DNA from: a plasmid
Sequence record: NZ_CP069398.1
DNA: 64,000 nt
Reading direction: 5' to 3' (one strand)
In this document: piece after piece, positions 3,634 to 20,630 of the stretch
Layout of the letters: the number at the start of each line of letters is the position of its first letter
Numbering within the stretch: position 1 is the stretch's first letter
Made by a program: the position numbers and the translations under genes
The notes under the pieces: generated by a model
Databases searched by the model: none
The model's input: the letters and a program-made list of their open reading frames with translations, nothing else
Told to the model about the DNA's origin: nothing

Positions 3634-4168
3634 TTAACTTATCTTAGTATTTTTCACGCTTAAATCTCTAATTAAATCTTGAATTTCGTTATTATCATAA
3701 ATTTTCTTTATCATTCCCTCTTTATCTAACAAGAACAAAGTAGGTACTTCTTTTATTTGATAATTAACCGAGAGGTCGTTCGATCGAATTAAATACATAT
3801 TCTTGTGAGTGACTAAGTTTGATAAATTTTCAAGTTCAGGATTTTCATCAGCTATAACAATTACTCTAATTGAAGGTGGAATCTTATTTTTAATTAATAT
3901 AAAGGTTTCTTTACACATATTACATATATCATCCGCAAAGAATAACAAAGTAAATGAATTATTAAAGTCACTTAATTTAACTAAATTCCCTTCATTATCG
4001 GTTTCTTTAAAAAGTGGAGCTTTCTTTCCAGCTGCCAACAAATTAGAATTTGTTTTTTCGATACGTAGATTTTTAAGGAAATGAGTAATAGATTTTGTGA
4101 GTAGAAATATAAATAAAGTTTGGATTATCACAACAACCCAAAGAATTATATTAGAGTATACTAAAGTA
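3634..4168 (-). CDS. TlpA/ResA-like membrane-anchored thiol-disulfide oxidoreductase (CxxC = CNMC), 3' portion. The gene is split by a transposon; its native ATG and first 4 codons lie at 17316..17305 on the other side of the insertion.
   Basis: N-terminal TM helix, then a thioredoxin fold with a CNMC motif. Removing 4169..17299 plus one copy of AAGTA reconstitutes ATG GGA CAT ACT TTA GTA TAC..., which reads MGHTLVYSNIILWVV... A GGTG RBS lies 7 nt upstream. The ORF-track extension into 4169..4305 is transposon IR and left-arm sequence. Confidence 0.7.
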
Positions 4169-4210
4169 GGGGTACGACCGAGGTACTTGTAAAAAAGGGT
4201 CATAGCATGG
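4169..4210 (+). repeat. Left terminal inverted repeat of the Tn3-family transposon
   Basis: GGGGTACGACCGAGGTACTTGTAAAAAAGGGTCATAGCATGG. Matches the reverse complement of 17258..17299. Confidence 0.8.
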
Positions 4211-4582
4211 ATTTTTTTTACATTTACAACCCTTTTTACTCTGTAGGGTAGGGTGGGGTCAGAAAAGTGCGGTTGTTGGTAGGATCCTAATAGGGGTAGT
4301 GTCATTGTCGCTACTCCTATTAAGGAATACTTAAACTAAATCACAAATTAATAAGAAGAAACACATCTTAAAAAATGAGCATTGAACCTTTGCATAATAA
4401 GCAAAAGTCCTTTAAAATTTGTTAGCCGGGTAGAAAATGCTATAATGCTCTTATAAAAAAGAATGGATGCAAAATAGTTTAGGTAAGTTCTAAAACGATT
4501 TCTTTTATTCTTCGACAAACAGGCCAGATTCGTAATTTCTCAAGAGAATAATACAAGTCGCTGTAGGGGTTTTTGTGTTTTT

Positions 4583-5570
4583 TCACTTATGATTACTTTG
4601 ATATACAAGACCTATTTCATCTCTCACTTTATCCAACACTTGTATCGTGGTGTATGAATTTTTATATGAGTTAGTATCAGACTCTGTTTTTCCTCGGTTG
4701 ATTAATTCAATAAATTCTTTCACTTCGTAATACATAGCTGGATGAGATTGGTCGACTGTTAATTGTTCAACCGTGCCGTCAGTGTAGTGAATTTCTACTT
4801 TTTCAGCCGTATGAATCTTATCAATCATGATACTTCCTTTTTCGCCTTGAATTTCGCTTGGTAAATAAGAGTTCGTTATTTTGGAATACATCACAATCGC
4901 ATCTTTATCATCATATTTTAAGATGACGCTACCTTCACCATCCACACCCGAATCAAGCATAATGCCAGTTGCCTTCACTTCTTTTGGTTCACCAAATAAT
5001 GTAATAAGTGGATACAAACAATAGACACCAAGGTCCATTAATGAACCGTTCGCAAACTCTGGATTGAAGGCATTAAGGACAATTCCTTCTTTGTATTTAT
5101 CATAACGAGATGAATACTGACAATAGCTTGCAAAGTATCTACGGATAGGACCAATTTTATGTAAATTATCTTGAATGACCTTGAAGTTTGGAAGTAAGGT
5201 TGATTTCATTGCTTCCATTAATAGGGCGTTATGATCTTTTGCGGCTTGAATCATCCTCGCTACTTCGGTTGCATTAACAGCCAGTGGCTTTTCACATAAC
5301 ACATGTTTGCCATTTTGCAAAAATAAAATAGCTTGTTCTGCGTGATATGAATTGGGAGTAGCCAATGTACACCGCGTCAATTTCTTGACTAACTGCCATT
5401 TCTTTTAGGTTTGTAAATATTTTTGTTACTCCATATTTACTTGCAAATTCTTCTGCTCTACTAATCGTGCGAGAATAAACAGCAGTTAGTTTAAAATCTT
5501 CTACATCATTTGCTGCTTCAAGTAATCTTTCTGTAATCCAATTAGTACCGATTACGCCGAATCGAACCAT
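4583..5570 (-). pseudogene. Gfo/Idh/MocA-family NAD(P)-dependent oxidoreductase, frameshifted
   Basis: The N-terminal Rossmann part (MVRFGVIGTNWITERLL..., 92-aa ORF) and the C-terminal part (265-aa ORF beginning ...TPNSYHAEQAI) lie in different frames and overlap at 5292..5380. One indel near 5350 would fuse them. Confidence 0.6.
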
Positions 5571-5928
5571 TTATTCAACCTCATTCCTTTGTTTTATAAA
5601 ACGAAGAGTTTTGTTTACTACACTTATGAAGCGTTTTTCATCGCCAATAGGATTTTATTTTCCCATAAAAAAACTTATATAGACATGGGGCCTACCAGTG
5701 AAATATTGGTGATAACCCAAATAGGGCTCATACTGTGAGTGATGGCTAAATTCTTGGCTGTGCCCCACCCAATAATGATCTCTGATCCGGCCATAGAAGG
5801 GACTGAATCAGAGGCTATTTTTTCTTTCCTGTATGGACTGTGTTATTTGTAATATGCAGTAAAGACCGCAATTCATAAAAGAAATAAATGCGGTCTTTAC
5901 GATGTTTCCATATTTTTTAAAGTGTACT

Positions 5929-6486
5929 CTATTCGAGATTGGCATGTTTGCCGTACATTTTAGTAGAGTCTAAGCCTTTTTTTTCCATAAAACGCAAGAT
6001 CAATGCATCATAAAATAATAACATCGTTTGCTCAAAAAGTGACCCCATTGGTTGTATGGTCTTATATTCACTTTCAGATTGATCTTTCGGTGATCCAGGC
6101 AATTTAATGATAATATCAGCTAATTTTCCAATCGTGGAGTCAGGGGAAATCGTTACAGCTGCGACCGTCCCACCTAAACTTTTTGCTTTTTCAGCGATTG
6201 AAACCAAGGTTTTCGTTTCACCTGAACCTGAACCGATGATCAACAAATCACCTTTTTCTAAATTTGCTGTTACAGTTTCACCGACTACATAAGCATCGAT
6301 CCCCATGTGCATCATTCTCATCACGAAAGATTTGCCCATAAATCCAGATCTGCCCGCACCTGCAACAAAGATTTTTTTGGATTCCAGAATCTTATTAACC
6401 AACTTCTCTGCTTCTTCGTCAGAGATTAAGTCGACTGTCCGACTTAATTCTTGAACGACTTCAGCTAAATATTGAGTAGTTTTCAT
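5929..6486 (-). CDS. hxlB: 6-phospho-3-hexuloisomerase (PHI, SIS domain)
   Basis: 185 aa. SIS-domain motifs (KIFVAGAGRSGFMGKSF, IIGSGSGET). Sits immediately downstream of hxlA, as in B. subtilis. Confidence 0.85.
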   Translation of the reverse strand: MKTTQYLAEVVQELSRTVDLISDEEAEKLVNKILESKKIFVAGAGRSGFMGKSFVMRMMHMGIDAYVVGETVTANLEKGDLLIIGSGSGETKTLVSIAEKAKSLGGTVAAVTISPDSTIGKLADIIIKLPGSPKDQSESEYKTIQPMGSLFEQTMLLFYDALILRFMEKKGLDSTKMYGKHANLE

Positions 6487-6494
6487 AGTTATAA

Positions 6495-7127
6495 TTAACC
6501 TTGTTTAATTAATTCTTGCATTTTAGCTGCAACTGCTTTTTTATCGTCTTTGCTTGTGATACCGCCACCTACGATGACAAGATCTGGTTGTACTTTAATC
6601 ACATCTGGAAGTGTTTCTAATTTGATTCCGCCTGCAATAGCAGTTTTCGCATTTTTTACAACGCTCTTAATGGTTGCAAGGTCTTCGAAAGAATTTTTTC
6701 CTACAGCTTGAAGGTCATAACCTGTGTGAACGCAGATATAATCTACTCCTAGTTCATCCAGTTCTTTCGCACGACCTTCAATGTCTTTAACTGCGATCAT
6801 ATCAGCAAGGATTTGTTTACCTTGTTTTTTTGCTTCTTCTACAGCACCTTTAATGGACTCGTCTTCAGCTGTACCAAGAATGGTGATGATGTCAGCGCCT
6901 GCTGCAGATGCTTGGCTAACTTCATATCCAGCTGCATCCATGATTTTAAGGTCAGCTAATACAGTTAAGTTAGGGAAGGCAGCTTTCACTTCCTTTACTG
7001 CTTTAAGGCCTTCATTAATCACAACCGGCGTGCCGATTTCTACAACATCTATATGATTTTCTACTTCTTTCACCAATTCAATGGCTCCTGGAATATCTAC
7101 AAGATCTAATGCTAATTGTAATTTCAT
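6495..7127 (-). CDS. hxlA: 3-hexulose-6-phosphate synthase (HPS, OMP-decarboxylase-like fold)
   Basis: 210 aa beginning MKLQLALDLVDIPGAIELVKEV..., characteristic of HPS. Divergent from hxlR. Confidence 0.85.
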   Translation of the reverse strand: MKLQLALDLVDIPGAIELVKEVENHIDVVEIGTPVVINEGLKAVKEVKAAFPNLTVLADLKIMDAAGYEVSQASAAGADIITILGTAEDESIKGAVEEAKKQGKQILADMIAVKDIEGRAKELDELGVDYICVHTGYDLQAVGKNSFEDLATIKSVVKNAKTAIAGGIKLETLPDVIKVQPDLVIVGGGITSKDDKKAVAAKMQELIKQG

Positions 7128-7204
7128 TTATTACTCGCTCCTTATATAATAGTATAATTGTGCCGTATAGCTTTCTTTTGCACAGTGTTATTGTATCCAA
7201 TTGA

Positions 7205-7320
7205 TAGCTATTTACTAACGGTATGATACTCAGTATACTGGGTATGTTACTAAATTAAAAGTATGCACTTTTTTATCATATAGTAACAAAAAGTATACTA
7301 TGGGACATAATAAGGGTTGG
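7205..7320. promoter_or_regulatory. Candidate hxlA promoter/HxlR operator region with repeated AGTATACT-N-GGG motifs
   Basis: The divergent hxlR-hxlA intergenic region contains ...GATACTCAGTATACTGGGTATG... and ...AAAAGTATACTATGGGACA..., direct repeats positioned like the B. subtilis BRH boxes. Confidence 0.3.
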
Positions 7321-7331
7321 AGGTGAAATGA

Positions 7332-7697
7332 ATGCCGAATCTTGGGGAAAAAGTGTTTAATTGTGAAAAAGAATTGACTCTTTCGATTATTGGTGGAAAA
7401 TGGAAAATGTTGGTATTGTGGCATCTAGGAAAAGAAGGAACCAAACGTTTTGGTGAACTAAAGGCCCTCATGCCGGGTATCACTCAAAGAATGCTTGTTA
7501 ATCAATTGCGCGAACTTGAAGACCATTTGATTGTTCATCGTGAAGTCTATCCTGTCGTTCCACCAAAAGTTGAATACTCACTCACTGAGTATGGAAGAAG
7601 TCTGATGCCTATTCTGGAAGCTATGTATGACTGGGGTAAAGATTATATTGAGAATGTATTGGAAAAAGAAACAGAAAACAAATCGTCTATTCAGTAG
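7332..7697 (+). CDS. hxlR: HxlR-family (MarR-like wHTH) transcriptional regulator
   Basis: 121 aa with the HxlR-family signature: [21 protein letters not shown]...[15 protein letters not shown]. Divergent to hxlAB. Confidence 0.85.
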
Positions 7698-7859
7698 AAA
7701 AAAGAGTTTCTCCTAGGGGTTCGAAAAAGTGTAAAAAAGTTCATATACTAACAAACCACGGTTAGCTATCTTAATAAAGATGCTGTCCGTGTTTTTTTAT
7801 ATCTCTACGTATTTAAAAGGTTGAAAAAACACAACATTTAATAAAAGAATCAGTTACTA

Positions 7860-7906
7860 AAAAGCCAAGGGCAGCGAATCTTGTATAATCGCTGTCCTTG
7901 GCTTTT
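7860..7906 (+). terminator. Rho-independent terminator after hxlR
   Basis: 17-bp perfect stem aaagccaagggcagcg / cgctgtccttggcttt, followed by Ts. Confidence 0.6.
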
Positions 7907-8158
7907 CACTCTTGGTATTGGATTCAAGTTTATAGTATTATTTTTAACACTATGTTATACCAATGTATCTATATGTTAATAAAGTGCGTACTTTCAAAAG
8001 TATAACATACGTAATATACTGATTTTGCTCAAGTAATAGCGAGCTTAAAGAATACTACCAAACCTTAAGGGAATACTGCTACAAGCATGGTGAGATGAAG
8101 TGAAACTTCATTTAATAATTTATACATGTTGTTGCTTTTTACGAAAGGAGAGATCCGC

Positions 8159-8323
8159 ATGGAAAGGTTCAAAACTAAGCAGCGAAAAGTTTGTGAAAGA
8201 TGTCTAATCATCACCATAAATAATGAAACCTGTCCAAAATGTGGACATTCTCAATTAAGAGATATCATTATTACCGGACAAGCTGGGAGAAATAAACGAA
8301 ACTTACATCCAAAAGTAGGATAA
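8159..8323 (+). CDS. Small zinc-ribbon protein (CxxC...CxxC), hypothetical
   Basis: 54-aa ORF MERFKTKQRKVCERCL...CPKCGH. A good RBS AAAGGAGAG lies 6 nt upstream of the ATG at 8159. The ORF track shows a longer, unlikely extension. Confidence 0.35.
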   Translation: MERFKTKQRKVCERCLIITINNETCPKCGHSQLRDIIITGQAGRNKRNLHPKVG

Positions 8324-8419
8324 CGCAATAGCGAAAATCCTTGTTGTTTTGTAGGGGAAACGAAGAAAATCAGACATTTTTCTATTTGAAAATGCTTTGA
8401 AAAAGTGGAGGAATGAAAA

Positions 8420-9892
8420 GTGGATTCTATGACGTTTGTCTTATTTGGGGCAACTGGGGATTTAGCTAAGCGAAAAATCTACCCTGCCTTGTTTAATTTA
8501 TATTTGAATCAAAAATTACCAGATTCTTTTTTGATCATTGGTGTAGGAATAGACGAAATGTCTGATGTTGATTTTCAAAACCATGTAACAGACTCGCTAT
8601 ACACTTTTTCTAGACACTTGATAAATGATAAATCCGAAAAACAAGAGTTTGTAAAGGCATTTCGTTATTGCCAGTTAGATTTCACGAATGCTGAAGGGTA
8701 TAAGAAGTTAGTTGAAGTCGTTCAACAAAATGAAAAAGACCAGAGTATTGAAGAGAATCGAATGTTTTATCTTTCTGTTGCTCCTGAATTCTTTGATGTA
8801 ATTGCTTTAAACATAAAGGAGAGTGGCTTAGGTTCGACAAAGGGATGGAAACGATTGATTATCGAAAAACCATTTGGGTATGACTTAAAATCTGCTGAAG
8901 ATTTAAACGAAAAATTAAGCAAAGCTTTTGAAGAAGATGAAATTTTCCGGATTGACCATTATCTCGGAAAACCAATGGTTCAAAACCTTGAAGCCTTGGA
9001 ATTTGCCAATCCTGTGCTGCAATCACTTTGGAACAATCGGTTTATTGCCAATGTGCAAATTACGGCTAGTGAAACGGTTGGTGTAGAAGAGAGGGCTGGT
9101 TATTATGACCAAGCAGGCGCTATTCGTGATATGGTTCAAAATCATATGCTACAGCTGTTGATGATGACAGCCATGCATCTCCCAAAACAGATTAGTGCAA
9201 AAGATATCCGTAATGAGAAAAGAAAAGTTATGGAATCTCTGCGACCATTACAGAAAAATACTGTAGGTATCCACGTCGTTCGTGGCCAATATGGATCAGG
9301 TGAAATAAACGGTACACCAGTAGTCAGATACTTAGAAGAACCTGGCGTTGATGCTTCTTCTAAAAACGATACATTCGTCGCTGCTCGTCTATGGATTGAT
9401 AATTCCTTCTGGGACGGGGTCCCATTCTATATCCGGACAGGAAAAAGAATGACGGAAAAATTAACGCGGATTGTGATTGAATTCAAAAACCCATTAAAGA
9501 ATTTGTATACCAATGAAATCCAAAATGCTGAACCCAATCTATTAGTTATTAATGTAAGTCCTAATGAAGGTGTTTCGTTGCAGTTAAATAGTAAAAACCC
9601 GATAAATGGAAAATTAGAACCTATTGTTGTTGATTTTTCAGCGAGTAAAAAAGACGTGCCCGAAGCATATGAACTCTTAATATTTGATGCTCTGCGTGGG
9701 GACTCTACCTTCTTTGCTCATTGGGACGAAGTTGAATTATCTTGGAAATGGGTACAGCCCGTTTTAGAGGCGTTTGAGGAAAATGCCCTTCCACTCCACC
9801 TATATCAAGCCGGTTCGATGGGGCCACAAGCTGCTTCGCAATTATTGGAGGAGGATGGTTTTAAATGGTGGGAAACTAGGGGGGGAGTTTAA
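8420..9892 (+). CDS. zwf: Glucose-6-phosphate 1-dehydrogenase
   Basis: 490 aa. Dinucleotide-binding motif FGATGDLAKRKIYPAL. Conserved G6PD segments (RIDHYLGK, EKPFG). Confidence 0.9.
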   Translation: MDSMTFVLFGATGDLAKRKIYPALFNLYLNQKLPDSFLIIGVGIDEMSDVDFQNHVTDSLYTFSRHLINDKSEKQEFVKAFRYCQLDFTNAEGYKKLVEVVQQNEKDQSIEENRMFYLSVAPEFFDVIALNIKESGLGSTKGWKRLIIEKPFGYDLKSAEDLNEKLSKAFEEDEIFRIDHYLGKPMVQNLEALEFANPVLQSLWNNRFIANVQITASETVGVEERAGYYDQAGAIRDMVQNHMLQLLMMTAMHLPKQISAKDIRNEKRKVMESLRPLQKNTVGIHVVRGQYGSGEINGTPVVRYLEEPGVDASSKNDTFVAARLWIDNSFWDGVPFYIRTGKRMTEKLTRIVIEFKNPLKNLYTNEIQNAEPNLLVINVSPNEGVSLQLNSKNPINGKLEPIVVDFSASKKDVPEAYELLIFDALRGDSTFFAHWDEVELSWKWVQPVLEAFEENALPLHLYQAGSMGPQAASQLLEEDGFKWWETRGGV

Positions 9893-10090
9893 TCCGCACC
9901 TCCCTGGAAGGCTATTGGTATGAAGAGAGCAAACCGAGGTTGGATTTGACAGATAATTGTTACGCGATTTACCCAAGGAACTTAAAGTATTTGTTGAATC
10001 CTTATGGTTCCATAAGGAGACCATGAAGAACAACAAATGGGTAGCATAATAATACAGGCTATTTTTTGTAATTTAAAGGAGGAAACTCAA

Positions 10091-10984
10091 GTGAAAGTAG
10101 GATTAATTGGATTAGGGAAAATGGGTATGAACTTAGGAAAAAACTTAATTGACAATAAACACCGTGTAATGGCGTTTGATCTAAATACAAATACTATTGA
10201 AGAAATTAAAAAATACGGAGTTGAAGGAGCATCCAGTTTACAAGATCTTGTTCAATCATTAGAAAAGCCACGAGTTGTTTGGATAATGGTCCCACACTCC
10301 GTCGTTGATTCAGTTATTAGTGAAATCACACCATTTCTAAGTGAAGGAGATATCGTCATTGAAGCTGGTAATTCGCATTATAAGGAATCCATTCGTCGTT
10401 ACGAACAGTTGAAGAAAGTTGGAGTGAGCTTTATGGATGCCGGTACTTCTGGGGGGATGGAAGGTGCTCGCTATGGTGCTTGTTATATGATTGGTGGAGA
10501 TCCTGAAGCATGGAGCATTGTCGAGCCGATTTTTAGAGATACAGCTGTAGATAATGGGTATTTATATGCTGGGAAATCTGGTAGTGGCCACTTCTTAAAA
10601 ATGGTCCACAATGGAATAGAATACGGAATGATGGCCGCCATTGGTGAAGGATTCGAAGTCCTGGAAAAAAGCGATTTCGATTTTGACTATGAAAAAGTGG
10701 CACGGGTGTGGAATAACGGTTCTGTCATCCGCTCATGGCTCATGGAATTGACAGAACGCGCATTTTCTAAAGATGCAAAATTAGATGAAATTAAGGGCAT
10801 TATGCATTCTTCTGGGGAAGGGAAATGGACAGTTGAAACCGCTTTGGATCTTCAAACAGCTACCCCTGTTATCGCTATGTCTTTACTAATGCGTTACCGT
10901 TCATTAGACAATGATACATTTACAGGTAAAGTGGTAGCTTCCCTTCGTAATGAATTTGGCGGACATGCTGTGGAAAAATCATAA
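10091..10984 (+). CDS. 6-phosphogluconate dehydrogenase, short decarboxylating form (YqeC/GndA-like)
   Basis: GTG start with RBS AAAGGAGG 8 nt upstream. Rossmann motif VGLIGLGKMGMNLGKNL. Length about 297 aa, typical of short-form 6PGDH-like proteins. The ORF-track start at 10037 is probably too long. Confidence 0.7.
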   Translation: MKVGLIGLGKMGMNLGKNLIDNKHRVMAFDLNTNTIEEIKKYGVEGASSLQDLVQSLEKPRVVWIMVPHSVVDSVISEITPFLSEGDIVIEAGNSHYKESIRRYEQLKKVGVSFMDAGTSGGMEGARYGACYMIGGDPEAWSIVEPIFRDTAVDNGYLYAGKSGSGHFLKMVHNGIEYGMMAAIGEGFEVLEKSDFDFDYEKVARVWNNGSVIRSWLMELTERAFSKDAKLDEIKGIMHSSGEGKWTVETALDLQTATPVIAMSLLMRYRSLDNDTFTGKVVASLRNEFGGHAVEKS

Positions 10985-11099
10985 AGTCATCTGCTGTATA
11001 TGTCTTTCGTTAAAATGAGCCGGAAATTCATTGGATTTTTAGTTTGGTATATCCCAAAAATTGGTAGATTTACTTAAGTCGTTGATAGTGCTAACTATG

Positions 11100-11300
11100 T
11101 TGATTGAAGCGGAAGGAGCGAGACTCCTCGAAAATGCATTCACATTTTCTCGTGCGGTGCCTATTCACGGATGATGATTCAACGTCCTGCGGGAAAAACA
11201 TGACAAGGGAGACCCCGCAGCCGCACAGCGCCGAGGAGGCTCCCGGCTCGCCCGCGGAAAGCGAGCACCTGGAGCCAACAGACAAGTTTAACAGAGCCAA
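11100..11300. repeat. GC-rich structured intergenic repeat (B. cereus-group bcr-like element)
   Basis: About 200 bp with strikingly higher GC than its surroundings. Several internal palindromes (cgaaaatg...cattttcg; gctcgc...gcgagc). ORFs on both strands (91 aa and 71 aa) overlap it and are probably spurious. Confidence 0.4.
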
Positions 11301-11315
11301 AAAAATAAAACAATA

Positions 11316-11822
11316 TTGAGGTGTGACATCATGAACGTATTGGATGCAAAAATCATTAACACACAATATGGTTTAGAAACCTATTTAGACATGGTGAAGA
11401 ATATCGAAGTAAAAGAACTCCATTCTCCATCAGATAATGAGCCCTTTTATGAAATAGTATTAGGGATAGAGTATTTTCTTCTAAGGGACGGAAAATATTA
11501 TGATAGTGAAAGGAATTATTTTCGGATTCAAATGAGCGAAGATTTTAATTCAATCACGTTAAGAGAGACAGATACCGAAAGTTTATTTGCTGTCAAAACC
11601 GAACACGAGAGAGACTCAACTAAGCTACTGGTTGGAGAATGGCTTATAAAAACCAATGCTTTCAAGCAAGTAATAAGTGAACTGATCCAACAAAAGAAAA
11701 TGGAGAATGTTCAAAATGAGGGAGACACTCGAAAAGTATTAGGAACGATAAGATTCTTGGAAATATTACTTGAAATCAAAACAGAAGACATACTAAGTGC
11801 CGATGTAGAGAGGGACCATTGA
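11316..11822 (+). CDS. Hypothetical protein (168 aa)
   Basis: Clean ORF with no recognisable motifs. Lies between the 6PGDH-like gene and pgi. Confidence 0.4.
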   Translation: MRCDIMNVLDAKIINTQYGLETYLDMVKNIEVKELHSPSDNEPFYEIVLGIEYFLLRDGKYYDSERNYFRIQMSEDFNSITLRETDTESLFAVKTEHERDSTKLLVGEWLIKTNAFKQVISELIQQKKMENVQNEGDTRKVLGTIRFLEILLEIKTEDILSADVERDH

Positions 11823-12062
11823 GTTTTCTTAATACTAACTGTCTTTTAATGTACGCTATTGATAATTACACGGTCCCACTAAGGATTTTTCAAAATTGAA
11901 AAGGGGGAGTTTAAATGTGTTTTTAAAAACTTCCCTTATATACTGTAGAAAAGGAGAATGCACTAACATGAAACGTTTTACTATGCCGAGAGATCTTTTT
12001 TACGGAGAAGGATCTCCGATTGAAGCAGCTAAGCTAAATTTGATTGAAAGGGGAAGTAATGT

Positions 12063-13400
12063 ATGACTATTTCGTTTGATTACTCCAATGCATTAGCATT
12101 TATGAAAAAGAGTGAAGTAGATAATCTAAGTGAATTTGTAAAAGTGGCTCATAAAATGCTACATGAAAAAACAGGCCCCGGCTCTGATTATCTTGGTTGG
12201 GTCGATTTGCCACTAAACTATGATAAGAGTGAATTTGAAAGAATTAAACAAGCTGCTGAAAGAATCAAGAAACATTCAGACGCAATGGTTGTAATTGGTA
12301 TTGGTGGTTCGTATTTGGGTGCAAGATCAGCTATAGAAGCTTTGTCCCATAGCTTTCATAACCAAATGAACGATAAGACAAAAGTGTATTTTGCCGGTCA
12401 CAATATCAGTTCTACTTATATATCTCATTTATTTGAACTATTAGAGGGGAAAGATATCTCTGTTAACGTCATTTCCAAATCAGGAACAACGACAGAGCCA
12501 GCCCTTGCTTTCCGTATTTTTCGTGACTATATGGAGAAAAAATACGGAAAAGAAGAGGCGAGAAAACGTATTTTTGCCACTACTGATCAGGAAAAAGGCG
12601 TATTAAAAAAGCTCGCGGACAAAGAAGGATATGAAACGTTTGTTATTCCGGATGATGTAGGTGGAAGGTATTCTGTGCTAACAGCAGTTGGTCTCTTACC
12701 AATTGCCGTAGCAGGACTTGATATTGATCATATGATGGAAGGGGCAGCAGCAGCAGCCCGTAAATACAACAATCCTGATTTATTGACAAATGAGAGCTAT
12801 CAGTATGCTGCGGTCCGAAATGTACTCTACAATAAGGGAAAAGCAATTGAAGTGCTTGTTAACTATGAGCCCTCCCTTCACTACGTATCGGAATGGTGGA
12901 AGCAGCTGTTTGGGGAAAGTGAAGGAAAAGATCAAAAGGGGCTATTCCCTGCTTCCGTTGATTTTTCAACGGATTTGCATTCCATGGGGCAATATGTACA
13001 AGAAGGTCGACGAAACCTTTTAGAAACGGTTTTACAGATTAAGAAACCTCGAATTGAAGTGACTATTCAGGAGGATCCAGAAAATATTGATGGATTAAAC
13101 TTCCTGGCAGGTAAGACGATGGATGAAGTCAACAAAAGTGCATTTCAGGGTACCCTTATGGCCCATATAGATGGAGAAGTACCTAATCTCGTGATTGAAC
13201 TGGATGAAATGAATGAATACACTTACGGTGAGATGGTTTACTTTTTTGAGAAGGCATGTGGGATTAGTGGCCATCTATTAGGAGTTAACCCATTTGACCA
13301 GCCTGGAGTCGAAGCATACAAGAAGAATATGTTTGCTTTACTTGACAAACCTGGTTTTGAAGCAGAAAAAGCTACTCTCATGGAGCGTTTATCAAAATAA
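12063..13400 (+). CDS. pgi: Glucose-6-phosphate isomerase
   Basis: 445 aa. The N-terminus aligns with B. subtilis Pgi (...[11 protein letters not shown]...LGWVDLP). Has the SIS/PGI motif [11 protein letters not shown]. Confidence 0.9.
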
Positions 13401-13429
13401 TTATATCTGATTGGTTTTGTATTAATAAA

Positions 13430-13590
13430 AAGATTGTTACCAAAAACCATATTTTTTGTAACAATATTTATGAGAAATACTGATGCTTGATTTTACTAAT
13501 TTTATAGGTTACCAAAAATAATTACCAAAAGTTTTACCAAATACTTTTACAAAAATGATGTCTCTTGTACAATTAGATTATTAAATTGTG
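13430..13590. promoter_or_regulatory. Putative res (resolution) site and tnpR promoter region
   Basis: Dyad TTGTTACcaaaaaccatattttttGTAACAA is a candidate crossover subsite I. It is followed by repeated TTACCAAAA/TTTTACAAAA motifs (subsites II/III) immediately upstream of the resolvase gene. Confidence 0.5.
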
Positions 13591-13604
13591 CAGGAGGCTT
13601 CTTT

Positions 13605-14171
13605 ATGATAATCGGTTATGCTCGAGTTTCGACAGTTGACCAAAATTTAGACCGACAAATTATATTACTTTCTGAGTACGGCTGTGAAAAAATGGTTCAA
13701 GAGAAATTTACTGGGACTACAAAGGATAGAGATGGACTTAACTCATTGCTAGATGTAATAAGGAAAGGTGATACCGTTGTAGTAGAAAGTATTTCACGCT
13801 TAGGGAGAAAAACACTTGATATTCTTTCTATTATTCAGCAATTCGAGGATACTGGTGTAAAGTTCGTTTCTATTAAGGAGAACATGGATACAAGAACATC
13901 AACGGGAAAAGCCATGTTTCAAATGATGTGTGTCATCGCAGAGTTAGAAAGAAATTTAATTGTAGAAAGAGTTAAAGAAGGGTTAGAAGCGAGTAAAAGA
14001 AGAGGAAAAAAACTAGGAAGGCCTAAAGTGGATCAAGGGAAAATTGAAATAGCCTTGAGGATGTATGACAGTAAAGAATACTCGGTAAAAGAAATTGTAG
14101 AAGGTACAGGACTTTCACAGGGATCATTATATCGAGCGATTAATAAAAGAAAACTAGTAGAAGCAAATTAA
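13605..14171 (+). CDS. tnpR: Serine recombinase, Tn3-family resolvase
   Basis: 188 aa. N-terminal catalytic motif IGYARVSTVDQNLDRQ. C-terminal HTH. Confidence 0.9.
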   Translation: MIIGYARVSTVDQNLDRQIILLSEYGCEKMVQEKFTGTTKDRDGLNSLLDVIRKGDTVVVESISRLGRKTLDILSIIQQFEDTGVKFVSIKENMDTRTSTGKAMFQMMCVIAELERNLIVERVKEGLEASKRRGKKLGRPKVDQGKIEIALRMYDSKEYSVKEIVEGTGLSQGSLYRAINKRKLVEAN

Positions 14172-14242
14172 TAATCTCTTATATTTTTAGGGAATTATGT
14201 GACGGACTAGGGCAGCTACTCTGTCACCACCCCCAACTTAAT

Positions 14243-17209
14243 TTGAATGGAGTTGGTAATTTGGCATCTATAGAACGTACGGCTTATCCAAGATTTAAAA
14301 AACGTCCTACTTCAAAAGAACTTCGTGATGTTTACTCCCCTACACCTGAAGAAAACCAATTTGCGCATAAAGTTGCTAGAGGACCTGTTTCAGTTCTAAG
14401 TCTATTAGTTATGTTAAAGTCTTTCCAACGACTTGGTTACTTTCCTCGACCGAAAGATATTCCTGTAGAGATCATGATTCATATTCGGACCTGTTTGAAT
14501 CTCTCTGCTAGTGTTGAACCGAATTACAATAGTAAATCAATTTACCGACATCAAAAAGCAATTAGAGATTACCTCAATGTACGTCCTTATGGAAAAGAAG
14601 CCTTACATATTGCAACTACTTCAATTTATAAGGCTACACAGGTAATGGACAATCCAGCCGATCTTATCAACGTATCCATTGAAATATTAATAAAAGAAAG
14701 GTGTGAATTACCTGCTTTTAGTACATTAGATCGATTGGCTCGTCGTATAAGAACATTAGTGAATCACCAGTTATTTAATTCAGTATTTTCAAAATTGACT
14801 CCTGAAATTGAGCGAAAATTAGATCAATTACTAGTTACTAAAAATGATAATCGGACTTCTGAATATAACTTATTAAAAGAAATTCCAAAAAGCGCAACAC
14901 TTTCGCATATGAAAGAAATACAAAATAGGTTACTTCTGTTAACTGATTTTATAGAAGAAATTGATAGCTTACTAGAGGATATTCCAAATTTAAAAATTAA
15001 ACACTTCGCTTTAGAAGCAAAAGCGCTTGATGCATCAGAATTAAAAGACTTTAATTTAGCTAAAAGATATATGCTGCTACTTTGTATGATTTATCGCTCA
15101 AAAATTTCAGCTATAGATAGTTTGGTAGAGATGTTTCTCAAAAGAGTCAGAACAATACATAACAAAGGCAAAGAGGAGCTAGAACTTCTTCGAGAAAAAC
15201 ATAGATCAAAAACTGAAAATCTTATATCTGTTTTGGCGGAAGTCTTAAATGCCACAAGTATAAATGAGAACGATACCTTGACTGGTCAGAAAATAAGGGA
15301 GTTATTAGGGAGAAGAGGTGGTATCGACGCATTAAAAGAAGATTGTGAATCAATTTCATCATATAATGGCAATAACTACCTTCCTCTTTTATGGAAGTTC
15401 TATAAAAGCCACAGGAAAACTCTTTTTAGATTGATTAGTATGATTGAAATTAATTCAACCACACAGGATCAATCACTTTTAGAAGCTTTACAATTTTTAC
15501 GTGATAATGAGAACCGAAAAATTGAAAATCTACAAATAGATTTGGATCTTTCATTTGCTAGTGAACAGTGGAAAAAAACGATTTATGTACCTAAAGAAAA
15601 TAACTTAATCCATCGTAAACACCTTGAAATCTGTATTTTTTCCTATCTTGCAAGCGATTTAAAAACGGGAGACCTTTGTGTAAAAGGATCAGAGAATTTT
15701 GCTGATTACCGTGAACAGCTCCTTTCTTGGGATGAGTGTAAACCTATGGTAGATGAATACTGTAAGGAACTTGGCTTTTCTTCAAATTCAGGGGATTTTG
15801 TTCAACAATTAAAGCTCTGGCTAGGAGATACTGCACAAAAAGTAGATTTAAACTACCCTGATAACGGCCAGGTAATCATTAATGAAAATGGAGAACCAAC
15901 GTTGAGAAAAATAATGAGAAAAGAACAACCTCAGACAAGTAAGGCGTTAGAGGTAGTTATTTCTCAACGGTTACCTGAACGAAATGTCTTAGATATTCTT
16001 TGTAATGTAGAACATTGGACAAATTGGACACGGCATTTTGGACCATTATCTGGTTCAGATCCTAAGCTTGAAAATGCAATGGAACGTTATATCATTACTT
16101 CTTTTGGATACGGATGTAATTTAGGACCAACACAGACTTCTAAGCACATGAAAAAAGCAGTAACCCCACACATGATTTCATTTGTAAATCGGCGACATAT
16201 TAATGCATCTAAAATAGACGAAGCTATTCGTAATATTTTAAATCAATACAATCAATTTAGTTTGCCTAGACTATGGGGTGATGGAAAAACGGCTGCTGCA
16301 GATGGAACAAAATTTGATCTCTACGAAGAAAACTTAATCTCTGAATACCACATTCGATACGGAGGTTATGGGGGGATTGCATATCATCATGTTTCAGATA
16401 CTTATATTGCACTCTTTAGTCACTTCATTCCATGTGGAGTTTGGGAAGCAGTTTATATTATTGATGGTTTGCTGAAAAATAAATCAGACATTCAGCCCGA
16501 TACGTTACATGCTGATACGCAAGGTCAATCAACGCCTGTTTTTGCACTTGCACATTTATTGGGGATTAATTTAATGCCTCGTATTCGAAATTGGAAGGAT
16601 TTAAAATTTTACAGGGCTGATAAGGACACAAAATATCACCACATTGATCAGTTGTTTAGTGATACCGTTGACTGGGACCTAATTGAAACACACTGGCAAG
16701 ATCTGCTCCAAGTGGTTCTTTCTATAAAAGCTGGTAAAATATTACCCTCTACACTACTTAGAAAACTAAGTAACTATAGTAGAAAAAACCGATTATATCA
16801 AGCTTTTAGGGAATTAGGAAGGATTGTAAGAACTGTATTTTTGCTTAAATATATTTCTGATATAAAACTAAGAGAGCAAATTGGTGCTAGTACAAACAAA
16901 GTCGAAGCATATAACGGCTTTTCCAAATGGCTATTTTTTGGTGGCGATGGGATCATTTCAGAAAATGATCCAGAAGAACAAGAAAAGCGAATTAAATATA
17001 ATGATTTAGTTGCCAACGCAGTAATATTCCAAAATGTATGTGATATAACACTTATTTTGTGGGAACTTTCTAAAGAAGGCTATGTATTTTCAAAAGAAGA
17101 TATTGTCATGCTTAGCCCTTATCTGACTAGGCATATAAAACGTTTCGGAGACTATATGATCGATTTAGAAAATATTCCACAACCAATCGAGGGAGATATT
17201 CCTGTATAG
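14243..17209 (+). CDS. tnpA: Tn3-family DDE transposase
   Basis: 988 aa, the characteristic length. The gene ends 49 bp from the 42-bp terminal IR. Confidence 0.85.
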   Translation: MNGVGNLASIERTAYPRFKKRPTSKELRDVYSPTPEENQFAHKVARGPVSVLSLLVMLKSFQRLGYFPRPKDIPVEIMIHIRTCLNLSASVEPNYNSKSIYRHQKAIRDYLNVRPYGKEALHIATTSIYKATQVMDNPADLINVSIEILIKERCELPAFSTLDRLARRIRTLVNHQLFNSVFSKLTPEIERKLDQLLVTKNDNRTSEYNLLKEIPKSATLSHMKEIQNRLLLLTDFIEEIDSLLEDIPNLKIKHFALEAKALDASELKDFNLAKRYMLLLCMIYRSKISAIDSLVEMFLKRVRTIHNKGKEELELLREKHRSKTENLISVLAEVLNATSINENDTLTGQKIRELLGRRGGIDALKEDCESISSYNGNNYLPLLWKFYKSHRKTLFRLISMIEINSTTQDQSLLEALQFLRDNENRKIENLQIDLDLSFASEQWKKTIYVPKENNLIHRKHLEICIFSYLASDLKTGDLCVKGSENFADYREQLLSWDECKPMVDEYCKELGFSSNSGDFVQQLKLWLGDTAQKVDLNYPDNGQVIINENGEPTLRKIMRKEQPQTSKALEVVISQRLPERNVLDILCNVEHWTNWTRHFGPLSGSDPKLENAMERYIITSFGYGCNLGPTQTSKHMKKAVTPHMISFVNRRHINASKIDEAIRNILNQYNQFSLPRLWGDGKTAAADGTKFDLYEENLISEYHIRYGGYGGIAYHHVSDTYIALFSHFIPCGVWEAVYIIDGLLKNKSDIQPDTLHADTQGQSTPVFALAHLLGINLMPRIRNWKDLKFYRADKDTKYHHIDQLFSDTVDWDLIETHWQDLLQVVLSIKAGKILPSTLLRKLSNYSRKNRLYQAFRELGRIVRTVFLLKYISDIKLREQIGASTNKVEAYNGFSKWLFFGGDGIISENDPEEQEKRIKYNDLVANAVIFQNVCDITLILWELSKEGYVFSKEDIVMLSPYLTRHIKRFGDYMIDLENIPQPIEGDIPV

Positions 17210-17257
17210 TATATAAGAAAGTAAAGAGCAAGAAAGGGTTATAAATGGTAAACAATA

Positions 17258-17299
17258 CCATACTATGACCCTTTTTTACATGTATCTCGGTCGTACCCC
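17258..17299 (-). repeat. Right terminal inverted repeat of the Tn3-family transposon
   Basis: Reverse complement GGGGTACGACCGAGATACATGTAAAAAAGGGTCATAGTATGG, 38/42 identical to IRL. The adjacent 17300..17304 AAGTA repeats the target-site duplication at 4164..4168. Confidence 0.8.
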
Positions 17300-17326
17300 A
17301 AGTATGTCCCATAGCAAACACCTTTT

Positions 17327-17914
17327 CTAATTGTTATTTTTTAAAGACGAGATAATCTTATTAAAGTTTTCTATTATATGAATTAGTTCTCTAATTAGCA
17401 ATAATAAAATAATTATACAAATGGAAATGATTAAATATTGCCATGATTTATATCCAAATGCATAAACAGGGTTATTCGTATTTATTAAAGTATCAATAGA
17501 GAACAATGAATTTTTATTAAATGAAATTAAAAGTGCGGTTATAATGAGAAGAATATTTCTCACAACCAGTTTCCACGATAATTGATGATTCCCTAAAACT
17601 CCTCCACATCCACATGATATTTCTGTACGTCCCCGTAATAAATTTATAGAAATAGCAGTAATATAGACAAATAACAACGAAACTGCGCCTATGATAGCTA
17701 CTATTTCTAAAAGTCCGATTATTAGAAGTATTCCAACGGCTAATTCTGCTATAAAGTCCAATCTTCCAGCTATCTTAGAAAAATTAGAAGGTATTACTTT
17801 ATAATCGCTAATTATTCCAATATGTTTATCAAAATTGTTATATTTTGAAATAGCACTACTTAGAAAGATAAACGCTAAAAATACCCTTAAAAATAATTCT
17901 AATGCTGAGTTCAT
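17327..17914 (-). CDS. MauE/DoxX-like integral membrane protein with a CGCGG cysteine cluster
   Basis: 195 aa, 4-5 TM helices, motif ISCGCGGVLG. MauE-family proteins support disulfide formation in secreted cysteine-rich proteins. The stop is 10 nt from the native ATG of the split thioredoxin gene, so the two were translationally coupled. Confidence 0.55.
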   Translation of the reverse strand: MNSALELFLRVFLAFIFLSSAISKYNNFDKHIGIISDYKVIPSNFSKIAGRLDFIAELAVGILLIIGLLEIVAIIGAVSLLFVYITAISINLLRGRTEISCGCGGVLGNHQLSWKLVVRNILLIITALLISFNKNSLFSIDTLINTNNPVYAFGYKSWQYLIISICIIILLLLIRELIHIIENFNKIISSLKNNN

Positions 17915-19725
17915 ACAAGCACCTCTTGAACTTCTTTCTTATCTTGATACCATTGAGCCTGACTATTATACATTTCTGCGTATAGGGCACCTAATTTTAT
18001 TAAATCATCATGAGTTCCTTCCTCAACGATCTGTCCATTTTTTAAAACTAGAATACGATCCGCAAGTTTAGCAGAGGCCATTCTGTGAGAAATAAATAAT
18101 GTCGTTTTATCTTTAGAAAGTTCATTAAACTTGTTATATATATTTAATTCCGTGATAGGGTCTAAAGCTGAAGATGGTTCATCTAATATTAATACCTCAG
18201 CATCCCTAAATAATGCTCTAGATATAGCGATTTTTTGCCATTGTCCACCAGATAAATCCACTCCACTCCCCAAAAAATTCCCTAACAAAGTATCGTATCC
18301 CTTATTAAGCTTATTGATAAAATCATGCGAATCTGCCAATTGAGACGTAGCTAGTATCTTTTCTTTGTTATTTATTTCACCAGTAGAACTTATTGCTATA
18401 TTCTCAAAGGCTTTAAAGTAATATTTCATAAAATCTTGAAAGATGATGGAGAACTTGTTTCTTATGTCATTAGGGTTTATATAATTTGAATCAATATTAT
18501 CATATAAAATTGACCCACTGGTTGGTTTGTACAAACCTGCTAAACACTTAACTAAAGTAGTTTTCCCGGAACCATTCCTACCAACAATGGCGATTTTCTC
18601 CCCTGGTTTAATTGTTAAAGAAATATCTTTCAGAATCTCATTTTCACTATTTAAATATCTGAAAGAAATGTTCTTTAATTCTATACCCTTCTGCAATTTT
18701 TCATGTAAGAGCTGTTGCACTTTTCGATTGTCATTTAATTCATCTTCAGTGTTATAATCTACAAATTTATAATAATCATTAATATATAATGATTTCTCAT
18801 AAATTTGCGCCAAATCAACTGCAATTCCATTAATTGAACTTTGAGTAGTATGGACTGCTTCACCTATTACAACAAACTCCCCAATTTGAATTTTGGTTTT
18901 TTTTATGAGCCATATTATAATGAATGCTGCCCCTCCGTAAAACAAAGCCGATGCTCCATCTAAAGCAATTTTAGATTGATGTTCTTTTTTGGCTAACAAT
19001 AAATTTGCTTTATTATTCTTAATAAATTTTTTAGACCACTTATGTAATAAAAAATCTCTTAAATTAAAAGAACGGATTTCTTTAGAAGCTTCCCGAACTT
19101 TGATCAATTGTGAAATATAATCAGCCTCACGAGCTTCAGGTGTAGTATTGTATAGCAACCAGAAGCGTTTATCTCCAAATTTAGAGTTAATAATAAACAT
19201 AGGTATACATACAACTAAACTAAAGACTACTAAAGACCAATGGATGCTAAATAAGAACCCTAGCATAGAGATTAAAGTAATAAAAGTCCTAAAAATTTGT
19301 ATTACTGACTTAAAAGGAGCCAAGAAAGCATTCCCACTACCATCTAATCTCGATAAATGATTGTAAAAATTATTATCATCAAAATACTCTAAAGGAATAG
19401 AGGAAGCCCTTTTTAATATTTCAGATTCTAAATAATAATTTAAATGCAATTGGAATTTTTTATCTATATAGTCATTAATATTAGTTATAAATGTACTAGC
19501 TAAAGAAATGAATAACTGTAAAATTAACAATGTAATTGGTAAAGAAAAATCATAATCAGAGTGATTGATGCTGTAAGCTAAGGAGTTAACTAGTTCTTTA
19601 GTTATGAATAGTACGAGAACAGGCACAACCCCTAATAAAATATTAGAAAAAACAGAAATAAAAATCCAAGATTTTCCCATGGACCAAATTAATTTAAAAG
19701 CTTTTGTCATGTTAATTATGTTCAA
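17911..19725 (-). CDS. ABC exporter, fused TMD-NBD (type I exporter, 604 aa), no C39 peptidase domain
   Basis: Walker A GRNGSGKTT, signature LSGGQWQK, Walker B ILILDEPSSALD. A six-TM N-terminal half. Confidence 0.85.
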   Translation of the reverse strand: MNIINMTKAFKLIWSMGKSWIFISVFSNILLGVVPVLVLFITKELVNSLAYSINHSDYDFSLPITLLILQLFISLASTFITNINDYIDKKFQLHLNYYLESEILKRASSIPLEYFDDNNFYNHLSRLDGSGNAFLAPFKSVIQIFRTFITLISMLGFLFSIHWSLVVFSLVVCIPMFIINSKFGDKRFWLLYNTTPEAREADYISQLIKVREASKEIRSFNLRDFLLHKWSKKFIKNNKANLLLAKKEHQSKIALDGASALFYGGAAFIIIWLIKKTKIQIGEFVVIGEAVHTTQSSINGIAVDLAQIYEKSLYINDYYKFVDYNTEDELNDNRKVQQLLHEKLQKGIELKNISFRYLNSENEILKDISLTIKPGEKIAIVGRNGSGKTTLVKCLAGLYKPTSGSILYDNIDSNYINPNDIRNKFSIIFQDFMKYYFKAFENIAISSTGEINNKEKILATSQLADSHDFINKLNKGYDTLLGNFLGSGVDLSGGQWQKIAISRALFRDAEVLILDEPSSALDPITELNIYNKFNELSKDKTTLFISHRMASAKLADRILVLKNGQIVEEGTHDDLIKLGALYAEMYNSQAQWYQDKKEVQEVLV

Positions 19726-19754
19726 TTTAAATCACCTTAGTCTTTACATTTTGT

Positions 19755-20270
19755 TCATTTAGTAAGAAATGAATGTAGCTTTCCTGCTAATGAGGTTACC
19801 ATCTCAATTTTTCCGTCATGATTAATAAAAATAAACGTTGGATATTGAGATATATCTGCTCTGTCCAAAAATTCTTTTGAGTACGGTAATGTTTTCACTG
19901 AGTCTTTATATTGATAAATAAACTCTTTAATTTTATTTTTTTCCTCATCTCTATTTCCAGATGCCACAGACATGACATAGTATTCAGCTTTATATTTATT
20001 TTTATTTTTTAGTAATTGTTCAAGTGCTACATGACAACTTGAACAACTAGTTAAAGAAACCTGTATGATTAACCTTTTGGAAGGAATATTCCAGTTGTGT
20101 GGCATTATTGTTCGAATATCTTCTCCCATCAAAGAGTGTTCTAGTTGTTCTACATTAGCTTCTATATTGGGTAAATAGCTCAATTCTATATTTAATGCTC
20201 GATACTGACAAAAATTAAATATTAATAGTATAAAAAAGCAGACACATATAATGCTTAAAATAATGTTCAT
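19755..20270 (-). CDS. TlpA-like thiol-disulfide oxidoreductase (thioredoxin fold, CxxC = CSSC), membrane-anchored
   Basis: 171 aa with an N-terminal TM helix and an active-site-like CSSC in a thioredoxin-like context. Confidence 0.6.
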   Translation of the reverse strand: MNIILSIICVCFFILLIFNFCQYRALNIELSYLPNIEANVEQLEHSLMGEDIRTIMPHNWNIPSKRLIIQVSLTSCSSCHVALEQLLKNKNKYKAEYYVMSVASGNRDEEKNKIKEFIYQYKDSVKTLPYSKEFLDRADISQYPTFIFINHDGKIEMVTSLAGKLHSFLTK

Positions 20271-20447
20271 AAAGACACTTCCTTAAATTTACATAACCTT
20301 GGGAGGTATACAAGGCAAAAAATAAAATGCTTACCTTTTCCTATAATTAAAAATTTAATTATAGGAAGGGAGCATTCTAATCTGTTTTGAATAAGATCCA
20401 GTTAATTAATAACCTTTGTAATTCAAAAGATAAATAGAGTTGCTAAA

Positions 20448-20630
20448 TTAAGAAGAAGATTTACAACAACCAATCTTTTTCTTACTACCGTCACGACAAA
20501 TTTGATATTTCACTGGCGTTGGCTTTAAAATACCAGAACAACTAGTGAAAAATTCGTCCTCACACACCGTTGAACAAAAAGTATCTGCTTGAGTAGTTAC
20601 TCCAAGGCTTTTCATGAACTTTTGTAACAT
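20448..20630 (-). CDS. Small cysteine-rich peptide (60 aa, 6 Cys): candidate precursor of a disulfide-rich secreted peptide or bacteriocin
   Basis: Strong RBS (AAAGGAGG, 8-nt spacer). Sequence MLQKFMKSLGVTTQADTFCSTVCEDEFFTSCSGILKPTPVKYQICRDGSKKKIGCCKSSS. It is the first gene of an operon with thioredoxins, a MauE-like protein and an ABC exporter. Confidence 0.5.
   Translation of the reverse strand: MLQKFMKSLGVTTQADTFCSTVCEDEFFTSCSGILKPTPVKYQICRDGSKKKIGCCKSSS

Follow-up and report, generated by a model that had tools for sequence, protein, structure and literature searches.

What does a plasmid operon make that sets a six-cysteine peptide, two thioredoxin (Trx)-fold proteins, a MauE-family membrane protein and an ATP-binding cassette (ABC) exporter side by side, and what becomes of it when a transposon enters its last gene? 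The question is raised by a 64,000-nucleotide stretch of a Priestia megaterium plasmid (sequence record NZ_CP069398.1), which was analysed as a whole and is called the window below; the operon lies on its minus strand. A first interpretation made from the letters of the window, the sequence-only reading, saw in these genes a dedicated disulfide maturation and export set for a secreted cysteine-rich peptide, a description that comparative genomics now supports. We consider it likely that this is a self-contained operon for a ribosomal, leader-bearing, disulfide-rich secreted peptide, most likely a bacteriocin-like antagonist. The broader proposal is more tentative, and we would give it not quite an even chance: that the locus belongs to a widespread Bacillales family of leader-bearing, disulfide-stapled peptides (4, 6 or 8 Cys, C-terminal CC) which fold via a dedicated MauE/MauD-type pathway and are served by a peptidase-less ABC protein.

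Gene order and operon signals

Open reading frames (ORFs) were called with their translations across the window, and the products were searched against the Pfam and NCBIfam profiles. All of the operon's ORFs lie on the minus strand in the order and at the positions that the sequence-only reading gave them. The precursor peptide gene (20448..20630) encodes 60 aa with six Cys and has a GGAGG 8 nt before its ATG. It is followed by the gene for Trx-fold protein 1 (19755..20270; 171 aa, CSSC motif), a membrane-anchored protein of the ResA/StoA/TlpA class, and by that for a half-size ABC exporter with one transmembrane and one nucleotide-binding domain (17911..19725; 604 aa from a TTG start, or 599 aa from the ATG at 19710). 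Next comes the MauE-family membrane protein (17327..17914; 195 aa, CGCGG motif), a putative quinone-linked disulfide generator. The last gene, which encodes a MauD-like Trx protein, is in two pieces: a 5' stub (17300..17312; ATGGGACATACTT, that is, MGHT plus 1 nt) that reads on into the right end of the transposon, and an orphaned 3' part (3634..4168; 176 codons) encoding a membrane-anchored Trx fold with a CNMC motif.

The spacing of these genes corrects one point of the sequence-only reading, which had the last gene translationally coupled to MauE. A 14-nt spacer separates the two, and the MauD-like gene has its own AAAGGTG Shine-Dalgarno sequence; translational coupling applies instead to ABC and MauE, the stop and start of which truly overlap, as ATGA.

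Upstream of the peptide gene, the best sigma-70-like promoter match of the region (20723..20750, minus strand; TTAACA-16-TATAAT, 11/12) lies ~90 nt from the peptide start and just downstream of a 20-bp hairpin (20760-20806) that ends the preceding gene; it is a consensus match only, in an AT-rich region where promoter-like sites occur at chance level. Between the peptide and Trx genes, a stem-loop followed by UUUUAUUUUUU (20317..20376, minus strand) forms a putative leaky terminator or attenuator. Its folding z is -3.57, with none of 200 shuffles folding equally well, and the stem is kept despite substitutions in the diverged copies of the locus in P. aryabhattai (L004) and in P. megaterium H2 (L040). 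Across the same comparison the entire spacer, 20271-20447, shows ~89% column identity against ~80-81% in the flanking coding DNA, a degree of conservation that points to a possible regulatory RNA structure beyond a simple terminator. A stem with a U-run agrees with the common layout of bacteriocin operons, where the structural gene yields more transcripts than the machinery does.

The cysteine-rich peptide

The peptide opens with a leader, MLQKFMKSLGVTTQ..., and its core has the spacing C-x3-C-x7-C-x13-C-x9-CC. A word-indexed search returned a single relative, from P. aryabhattai, at 86% identity, and an exhaustive profile search, run over 1.8 billion representatives, brought in two further close relatives of 56 and 52 aa, which share the spacing C-x3-C-x7-C-x13-C-RDGSK-x4-CC and terminate exactly at CC. 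The window gene differs from that of P. aryabhattai by 22 synonymous and 10 non-synonymous changes, which corresponds to a ratio of non-synonymous to synonymous rates (dN/dS) of 0.057, and all six Cys are retained. In a third Priestia plasmid the gene is called by the Prokaryotic Genome Annotation Pipeline (PGAP), under the name 'hypothetical protein'. We judge the 60-aa ORF to be a conserved, translated gene under strong purifying selection, because of these relatives with the same Cys spacing, the dN/dS and the PGAP call, and on this point the sequence-only reading is borne out. An AlphaFold2 (AF2) model from a four-sequence alignment has a disordered leader and, at residues 19-55, a three-stranded antiparallel beta-sheet with a core predicted local distance difference test (pLDDT) score of ~76-87.

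A cassette shared across the Bacillales

Searches with the peptide sequence reached close relatives only, and the wider peptide family was found via genomic context. Scanning one genome per species with a MauE alignment gave 30 reference loci, distributed over Brevibacillus, Paenibacillus, Tumebacillus, Cohnella, Fictibacillus, Sediminibacillus, Paenisporosarcina, Bacillus, Rossellomorea, Longirhabdus and Paenactinomyces; direct look-up found the cassette also in Lysinibacillus and the B. cereus group. An ABC gene adjoins MauE in all 30 loci, Trx 1 is present in most, and a MauD-like gene lies directly downstream of mauE in 28, of which 27 were found by phmmer. The other is in L031, where the gene had seemed to be missing; this was an artefact of the phmmer threshold, and a diverged copy with CSAC is there. 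The cassette of Trx, peptidase-less ABC, MauE and MauD-like Trx is thus present in at least 12 Bacillales genera.

Small Cys-rich ORFs with good Shine-Dalgarno sequences adjoin the cassette in 23 of the 30 loci, which upholds the co-occurrence with MauE, Trx and ABC genes on which the sequence-only reading depended. Four of the other seven loci are truncated contigs or marginal matches, and only three are complete. The position of the peptide ORFs varies: immediately before the cassette, between its Trx and ABC genes, immediately after it, or upstream in divergent orientation. Two or three tandem paralogous peptides are found in some loci. The peptides share an N-terminal motif, M-x-x-K/Q-hydrophobic-x-x-hydrophobic-hydrophobic-G-V/I-x-P, ahead of hypervariable cores. 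Among 25 distinct peptide types the Cys count is even in every one (six in 17, four in 6, eight in 2), and 19 end in CC. Pfam and NCBIfam models gave no meaningful match for any of the 25, and a PDB sequence search with the family profile and with single members gave none at E<=10.

The leader itself was used as an independent probe. A leader hidden Markov model (HMM) was built from Priestia, Lysinibacillus and Brevibacillus sequences alone and applied to 9,165 small ORFs of genera withheld from training; the four best-scoring of these ORFs, and 10 of the best 14, were Cys-rich and adjacent to the cassette. Leader-bearing Cys-rich ORFs adjoin the cassette in at least 12 genera and occur essentially nowhere else in the 20-kb loci. 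All-versus-all clustering of the neighbouring ORFs revealed no other universal gene.

Several of these loci carry further genes worth recording. In Brevibacillus and Cohnella (L010, L014, L015, L028, L030, L036), a ~230-aa ABC ATPase and a ~1,370-aa FtsX-type permease are encoded downstream of the MauD-like gene, and in Lysinibacillus a 77-aa two-transmembrane (TM) protein is encoded downstream of the cassette (L042, 8190-8423); both the FtsX-type ABC pair and the 77-aa protein are candidates for self-immunity. Paenisporosarcina indica has its MauD-like gene down to a 53-aa N-terminal remnant (L019, 10595-10756), so the gene that the transposon struck in the window also undergoes natural decay. 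In L019 and L031 an Opp-type permease gene pair lies directly downstream of the cassette.

The putative maturation and export proteins

MauE passes PF07291 with 88.8 bits (cut-off 27; E 4.8e-25). Its motif ...NLLRGRxEIsCGCGG is invariant in 24 Firmicute homologues and common to proteobacterial MauE, and by hydropathy C101-G-C103 falls after a hydrophobic segment that ends at ~93 and before the TM segment at 112-130, i.e. in the TM3-TM4 loop. A recent preprint reports that MauE proteins of two Gram-negative phyla restore motility and PhoA activity in E. coli delta-dsbB, that either Cys of the CXC, in the periplasmic-side TM3-TM4 loop, is essential, and proposes that MauE is a quinone-linked, DsbB-like enzyme acting via a Trx-fold partner such as MauD (10.64898/2026.03.05.709764). 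With complementation through the CXC and an invariant motif here, the earlier idea that MauE stands in this operon instead of DsbB has gained ground. The CGC is followed by GG in the window protein, where the preprint's commonest sequence is FG. K24 and E57 are conserved in eight of nine aligned sequences and may correspond, by position, to the TM1 Lys and TM2 Glu proposed in the preprint as quinone ligands.

Each of the two Trx-like proteins has one N-terminal TM segment, and the CxxC and cis-Pro are invariant in both families. The family profile of Trx 1 matches StoA (3erw) at E 1e-7 and ResA at 2e-5. The product of the interrupted gene had been described as a second TlpA-like Trx; its Trx fold and CNMC motif stand, but it is better called MauD-like. 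Its best NCBIfam match is TIGR02661, MauD (3.6e-11), at 42.9 bits, far below the 188.6-bit equivalog cut-off, and it passes Pfam AhpC-TSA. It has a TM segment at 9-27 and the CxxC and cis-Pro are invariant in 20 homologues, whose profile matches Etrx (2yp6) at 4e-16 and ResA at 1e-12.

The ABC protein comprises ABC_membrane and ABC_tran domains. Bacteriocin and NHLP exporter profiles align to it only from profile position ~130-190 (beginning at 153 in TIGR01193 and at 191 in TIGR03796) and there is no Peptidase_C39 match. As the alignments start past the peptidase region, the protein has no C39 peptidase domain, in agreement with the sequence-only reading.

Proposed pathway and alternative explanations

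These components suggest how the operon might work. The 60-aa precursor would be transcribed from its own promoter, and the hairpin and U-run after its gene probably let only part of the transcripts reach the maturation genes. The peptidase-less ABC half-transporter would export the precursor, probably recognising the conserved N-terminal motif. Outside the membrane, the two anchored Trx-fold proteins (CSSC and CNMC) would install and/or proofread its three disulfides, and MauE, DsbB-like and with a CGC active site, would re-oxidise its Trx partner, with the quinone pool taking up the electrons. As the partner of MauE, the MauD-like protein is the likeliest candidate. The host is Gram-positive and uses menaquinone.

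Several observations weigh against this scheme and the bacteriocin assignment that goes with it. Three complete loci (L012, L022 and L025) have no detectable peptide ORF. Neighbour clustering turned up no leader peptidase, encoded or conserved, close to the cassette, nor is there a C39 domain in the ABC protein that might serve. The AF2 model of the peptide is moderately confident overall (pLDDT 71), and a Foldseek search with it against the PDB gave no match at E<=0.001. The closest matches of the two Trx proteins, ResA, StoA and Etrx, act as reductases in their own pathways, and hence we only infer the redox direction. Oxidase activity of MauE has been demonstrated for two Gram-negative proteins only, in a preprint (10.64898/2026.03.05.709764). 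In lasso peptide clusters, the Trx protein SviF is dispensable for disulfide formation and needed for release, the peptide staying cell-associated without it (PMC9266682, PMC7168211). Lastly, the peptide family is known from genes alone, and it is from these that we infer secretion, disulfides and their connectivity, antimicrobial activity, ABC export, leader removal and the oxidant or isomerase roles of the Trx pair.

The alternative that survives best keeps the same machinery and makes the peptide a secreted signal, such as a pheromone, a factor of the sporulation or cannibalism type, or a cue for germination or biofilm formation. There is no universally conserved immunity gene, the hosts are all spore-forming Bacillales, one Trx is StoA-like, and the Priestia locus includes a SpoVB-like protein of the MOP superfamily, all of which would suit a signal. 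However, hypervariable cores behind a conserved leader, multiple paralogous peptides, a plasmid or island location with variable flanks and FtsX-type ABC pumps in several genera are typical of bacteriocins, and no receptor or two-component system is conserved nearby. We therefore consider a signalling role unlikely, if still the most credible competitor of a bacteriocin-like antagonist.

Less probable again is that the product is a true RiPP (a peptide that is ribosomally synthesised and then modified post-translationally), with non-disulfide modifications added by enzymes whose genes lie at other genomic sites. The pairing of a conserved leader and a hypervariable core is the RiPP hallmark, and decRiPPter listed mauE/mauD clusters as candidate RiPP families (PMC7794033). 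Yet a RiPP-modifying enzyme (radical SAM, LanM, YcaO, glycosyltransferase, lasso B/C) is neither present nor conserved next to any of ~35 loci, and the cassette moves as one compact piece, on plasmids and with flanks that vary.

It is highly improbable that the cassette is a general extracytoplasmic thiol-redox module, consisting of a CydDC-like exporter, ResA/StoA-like reductases and a DoxX-type protein, next to which the small ORF is incidental or regulatory. The ABC protein does match CydC/CydD profiles (1e-52 to 1e-45), and the Trx proteins resemble reductive-branch enzymes, but the ABC protein scores far better against MsbA, HlyB and bacteriocin-type exporters. The near-exclusive pairing of leader-bearing Cys-rich ORFs with the cassette, the even Cys count in all 25 types and the strong purifying selection on the peptide likewise speak against an incidental ORF.

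We find it just as hard to credit that the peptide is metallophore- or metallochaperone-like and uses its Cys as metal ligands rather than in disulfides. The abundance of Cys and a weak match of MauE to HvfX, a Cu-binding RiPP maturation family, would suit such a role, but the match is sub-threshold (30 bits against an 80-bit cut-off), and no MbnB/MbnC/HvfB/C-type enzymes are found in or near any locus, which removes HvfX and methanobactin-like systems as an identity. Two extracytoplasmic CxxC oxidoreductases with a DsbB-like oxidase indicate disulfide chemistry, the Cys count is always even, and the AF2 core is a compact beta-sheet.

If the bacteriocin-like reading and its extension to the Bacillales are true, the peptides would in effect constitute a new class of bacteriocins and give the MauE disulfide pathway in Gram-positives its first dedicated natural substrates. 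MauE has newly been put forward as the third major generator of disulfides in bacteria, next to DsbB and VKOR, and these operons link enzyme, partner and substrate genetically in tractable Gram-positive hosts, so that the pathway is directly testable, including which Trx MauE oxidises, whether menaquinone is used and how a three-disulfide peptide is proofread. The cassette also marks unannotated small disulfide-rich secreted peptides, whose database entries all read 'hypothetical protein'. Current mining tools for bacteriocins and RiPPs would probably overlook them, since the loci offer neither a core enzyme nor a known precursor model as a search key. The peptides could be a source of stable antimicrobial scaffolds.

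Transposon insertion into the MauD-like gene

The element that splits the operon is a Tn3-family transposon of 13,131 bp (4169..17299), which carries inverted repeats (IRs), a resolvase, TnpA and metabolic cargo. Its IRs (4169-4235 and 17233-17299) are 67 nt long, 87% complementary and start GGGGTACGACCGAG; the serine resolvase lies at 13605-14171 (PF00239, 3.5e-43) and TnpA, a Tn3-type DDE transposase, at 14243-17209 (PF01526, 1e-150). The family assignment follows from the DDE_Tnp_Tn3 transposase, the serine resolvase, IRs beginning GGGG and a 5-bp target duplication, AAGTA, found at 4164-4168 and 17300-17304 and in a single copy in contig L001. Past the stub of the MauD-like gene, the window sequence continues into the transposon end as GGGGTACG....

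The insertion, and the four codons (MGHT) that it leaves, are as the sequence-only reading had them; the exact break is not at codon 4, but after nt 13 of the gene, within codon 5. In-silico excision of 4169..17299 and one AAGTA restores a single ORF of 180 aa, MGHTLVYSNIILWVV..., and the predicted arrangement exists: the public contig L001 crosses the junction without a break, at 99.96% identity over 7,523 nt, and is a natural empty site. Contigs L002 and L003 end within the transposon IR, and the same insertion is therefore present in other sequencing runs. Another P. megaterium plasmid and two plasmids of Paenibacillus urinalis carry all 13,131 bp at 100% identity, which identifies the transposon as a discrete element that has recently been mobile. 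The P. megaterium and Paenibacillus urinalis plasmids with identical copies come from human isolates. The insertion as such is an ordinary event.

Its effect on the operon is to place 13.1 kb between the 176-codon remainder of the MauD-like gene and the other genes. The sequence-only reading suggested that a Met at 4203 might allow expression from the transposon end, a suggestion for which we find no support: there is neither a Shine-Dalgarno sequence nor a promoter-like site, and the open frame starts at the ATG at 4305. From there a chimeric ORF of 223 aa (3634..4305, minus strand) opens within the transposon left end, with AGGAG 8 nt upstream, and continues in frame into the MauD-like 3' fragment, retaining the TM anchor and Trx domain. 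A consensus scan found neither a promoter-like nor a terminator-like site on the strand of the chimera in 4169-4700, and an outward promoter at the transposon left end was rejected for want of a consensus match on that strand. Because no promoter-like site lies between a Gfo/Idh/MocA pseudogene and the IR, expression of the chimera would need read-through. This Gfo/Idh/MocA oxidoreductase gene (4583-5570, minus strand) is in two overlapping ORFs, matching Pfam profile positions 1-71 and 68-118 onward, and is by its reading frames a frameshifted pseudogene; it faces the left IR and the orphaned MauD-like fragment, and no terminator-like site lies between.

The system is probably impaired in the present plasmid owing to the insertion. 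Loss of the MauD-like protein may hinder release of the peptide rather than abolish its production, because loss of SviF spared the disulfides and kept the lasso peptide cell-associated. The window is in effect a natural knockout of the MauD-like gene, for which an isogenic intact counterpart exists in public data.

The cargo of the transposon comprises hxlB (SIS; 5929-6486), hxlA (HUMPS; 6495-7127), an HxlR regulator (7332-7697), zwf (8420-9892), an NAD-dependent gnd (10037-10984), a 168-aa unknown (11316-11822) and pgi (12063-13400). One mobile element thus encodes every one of the five enzymes that make up the cyclic dissimilatory ribulose-monophosphate pathway, which oxidises formaldehyde to CO2.

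The surrounding Priestia block

In Priestia the operon is part of a larger conserved block. On its downstream side lies a gene for a membrane protein of the MOP superfamily (Polysacc_synt/MurJ/SpoVB-like; 1797..3458, minus strand), which is co-conserved with the cassette within Priestia only. A flippase of this superfamily adjoins the cassette in Lysinibacillus as well, and a functional link was considered and rejected: the flippases of the two genera are not specifically related (E 0.013), and the adjacency is therefore lineage-specific.

On the upstream side, a 131-aa single-TM protein (p131; 20833..21228, minus strand) is specific to the conserved Priestia block and is a candidate for immunity. 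Beyond it is the gene for a secreted protein of ~192 aa (21410..22006, minus strand), the first ~5 codons of which have been replaced by the end of an IS1380-family element. This element (21975-23651; transposase 22170-23498) has the ends CCTGAATTATTCATA and a TAAAA duplication, is absent from L001, and sits at about codon 6 of the ~192-aa gene, the ORF of which now begins inside the element's end. With the transposon and IS1380 insertions, both outer genes of the conserved block have therefore been struck near their 5' ends.

The block is rearranged in P. aryabhattai (L004-L009, about 8140-9770), where the p198-p131 pair is inverted relative to the peptide operon and a p131-homologous fragment of 69-77 aa remains just upstream of the peptide gene; the fragment and the inversion suggest a past duplication or inversion at the site. 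In the P. megaterium H2 plasmid NZ_CP071467.1 (L040, 11540-13211), two genes for TIR-domain proteins lie immediately downstream of an intact block. The flanks differ in every Priestia strain examined, and the eight-gene block therefore behaves as a mobile island.

Comparison with known systems

We found no description of the Bacillales cassette or of its peptide family in the literature, in a search that covered few subscription-journal papers. In size, six Cys with three disulfides, beta-sheet content and host range, the peptide is like laterosporulin, the Brevibacillus defensin-like class IId bacteriocin, which is reported to be leaderless. A kinship with it, suggested by a likeness in CxC...VYxxYxxC, was rejected: the PDB sequence search gave no match at E<=10, and in the structural search with Foldseek laterosporulin3 (6lwy) scored E=4 with a TM-score of 0.22. 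In Streptomyces, decRiPPter predicted bioinformatically that mauE/mauD genes beside precursors with at least eight Cys modify RiPP precursors (PMC7794033). Those families, all of them predictions, belong to another phylum, are described with no leader family, ABC linkage or second Trx, and the Bacillales peptides are not mentioned (PMC7794033).

The sequence-only reading likened the locus to sublancin, and the logic of that analogy stands. The sublancin cluster, sunA-sunT-bdbA-sunS-bdbB, brings a structural peptide, an ABC exporter, a Trx-like protein and a membrane thiol oxidase together in one operon. Its details do not carry over: here MauE is in place of the DsbB-type BdbB, the ABC protein lacks C39, no glycosyltransferase domain is found in the operon proteins or their conserved neighbours, and the leader has a single conserved Gly in place of a double-glycine motif.

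The mau cluster provides the oxidase and its arrangement. The two systems have in common the PF07291 protein with its NLLRG..CGCGG motif and a Trx-fold gene immediately downstream of mauE, as in mauE-mauD. MauA, the native substrate of the MauE pathway, is small and disulfide-rich. In contrast to the mau cluster, the operon has no mauA/B/G or other methylamine gene, its Trx-fold protein is no equivalog of MauD, and its putative substrate is a leader-bearing peptide that would leave by an ABC pump rather than by Sec/Tat.

Class I lasso clusters (sviceucin, siamycin/MS-271, humidimycin, aborycin) encode the DoxX protein SviE/HumE and the CxxC Trx SviF/HumF beside ABC genes (PMC9266682, PMC7168211). 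They differ from the operon in being actinomycete, in their B/C enzymes and multi-subunit transporters, in having one Trx, and in that SviE is known by its DoxX annotation; neither a lasso cyclase (C) nor a leader peptidase or RiPP recognition element (B1/B2) is present in the operon or among the conserved neighbours of ~35 loci. What they share with it is a DoxX/MauE-superfamily protein and a CxxC Trx beside ABC genes, serving a ribosomal multi-disulfide peptide, and this makes the SviE/SviF pair the nearest described architecture and a closer precedent than sublancin.

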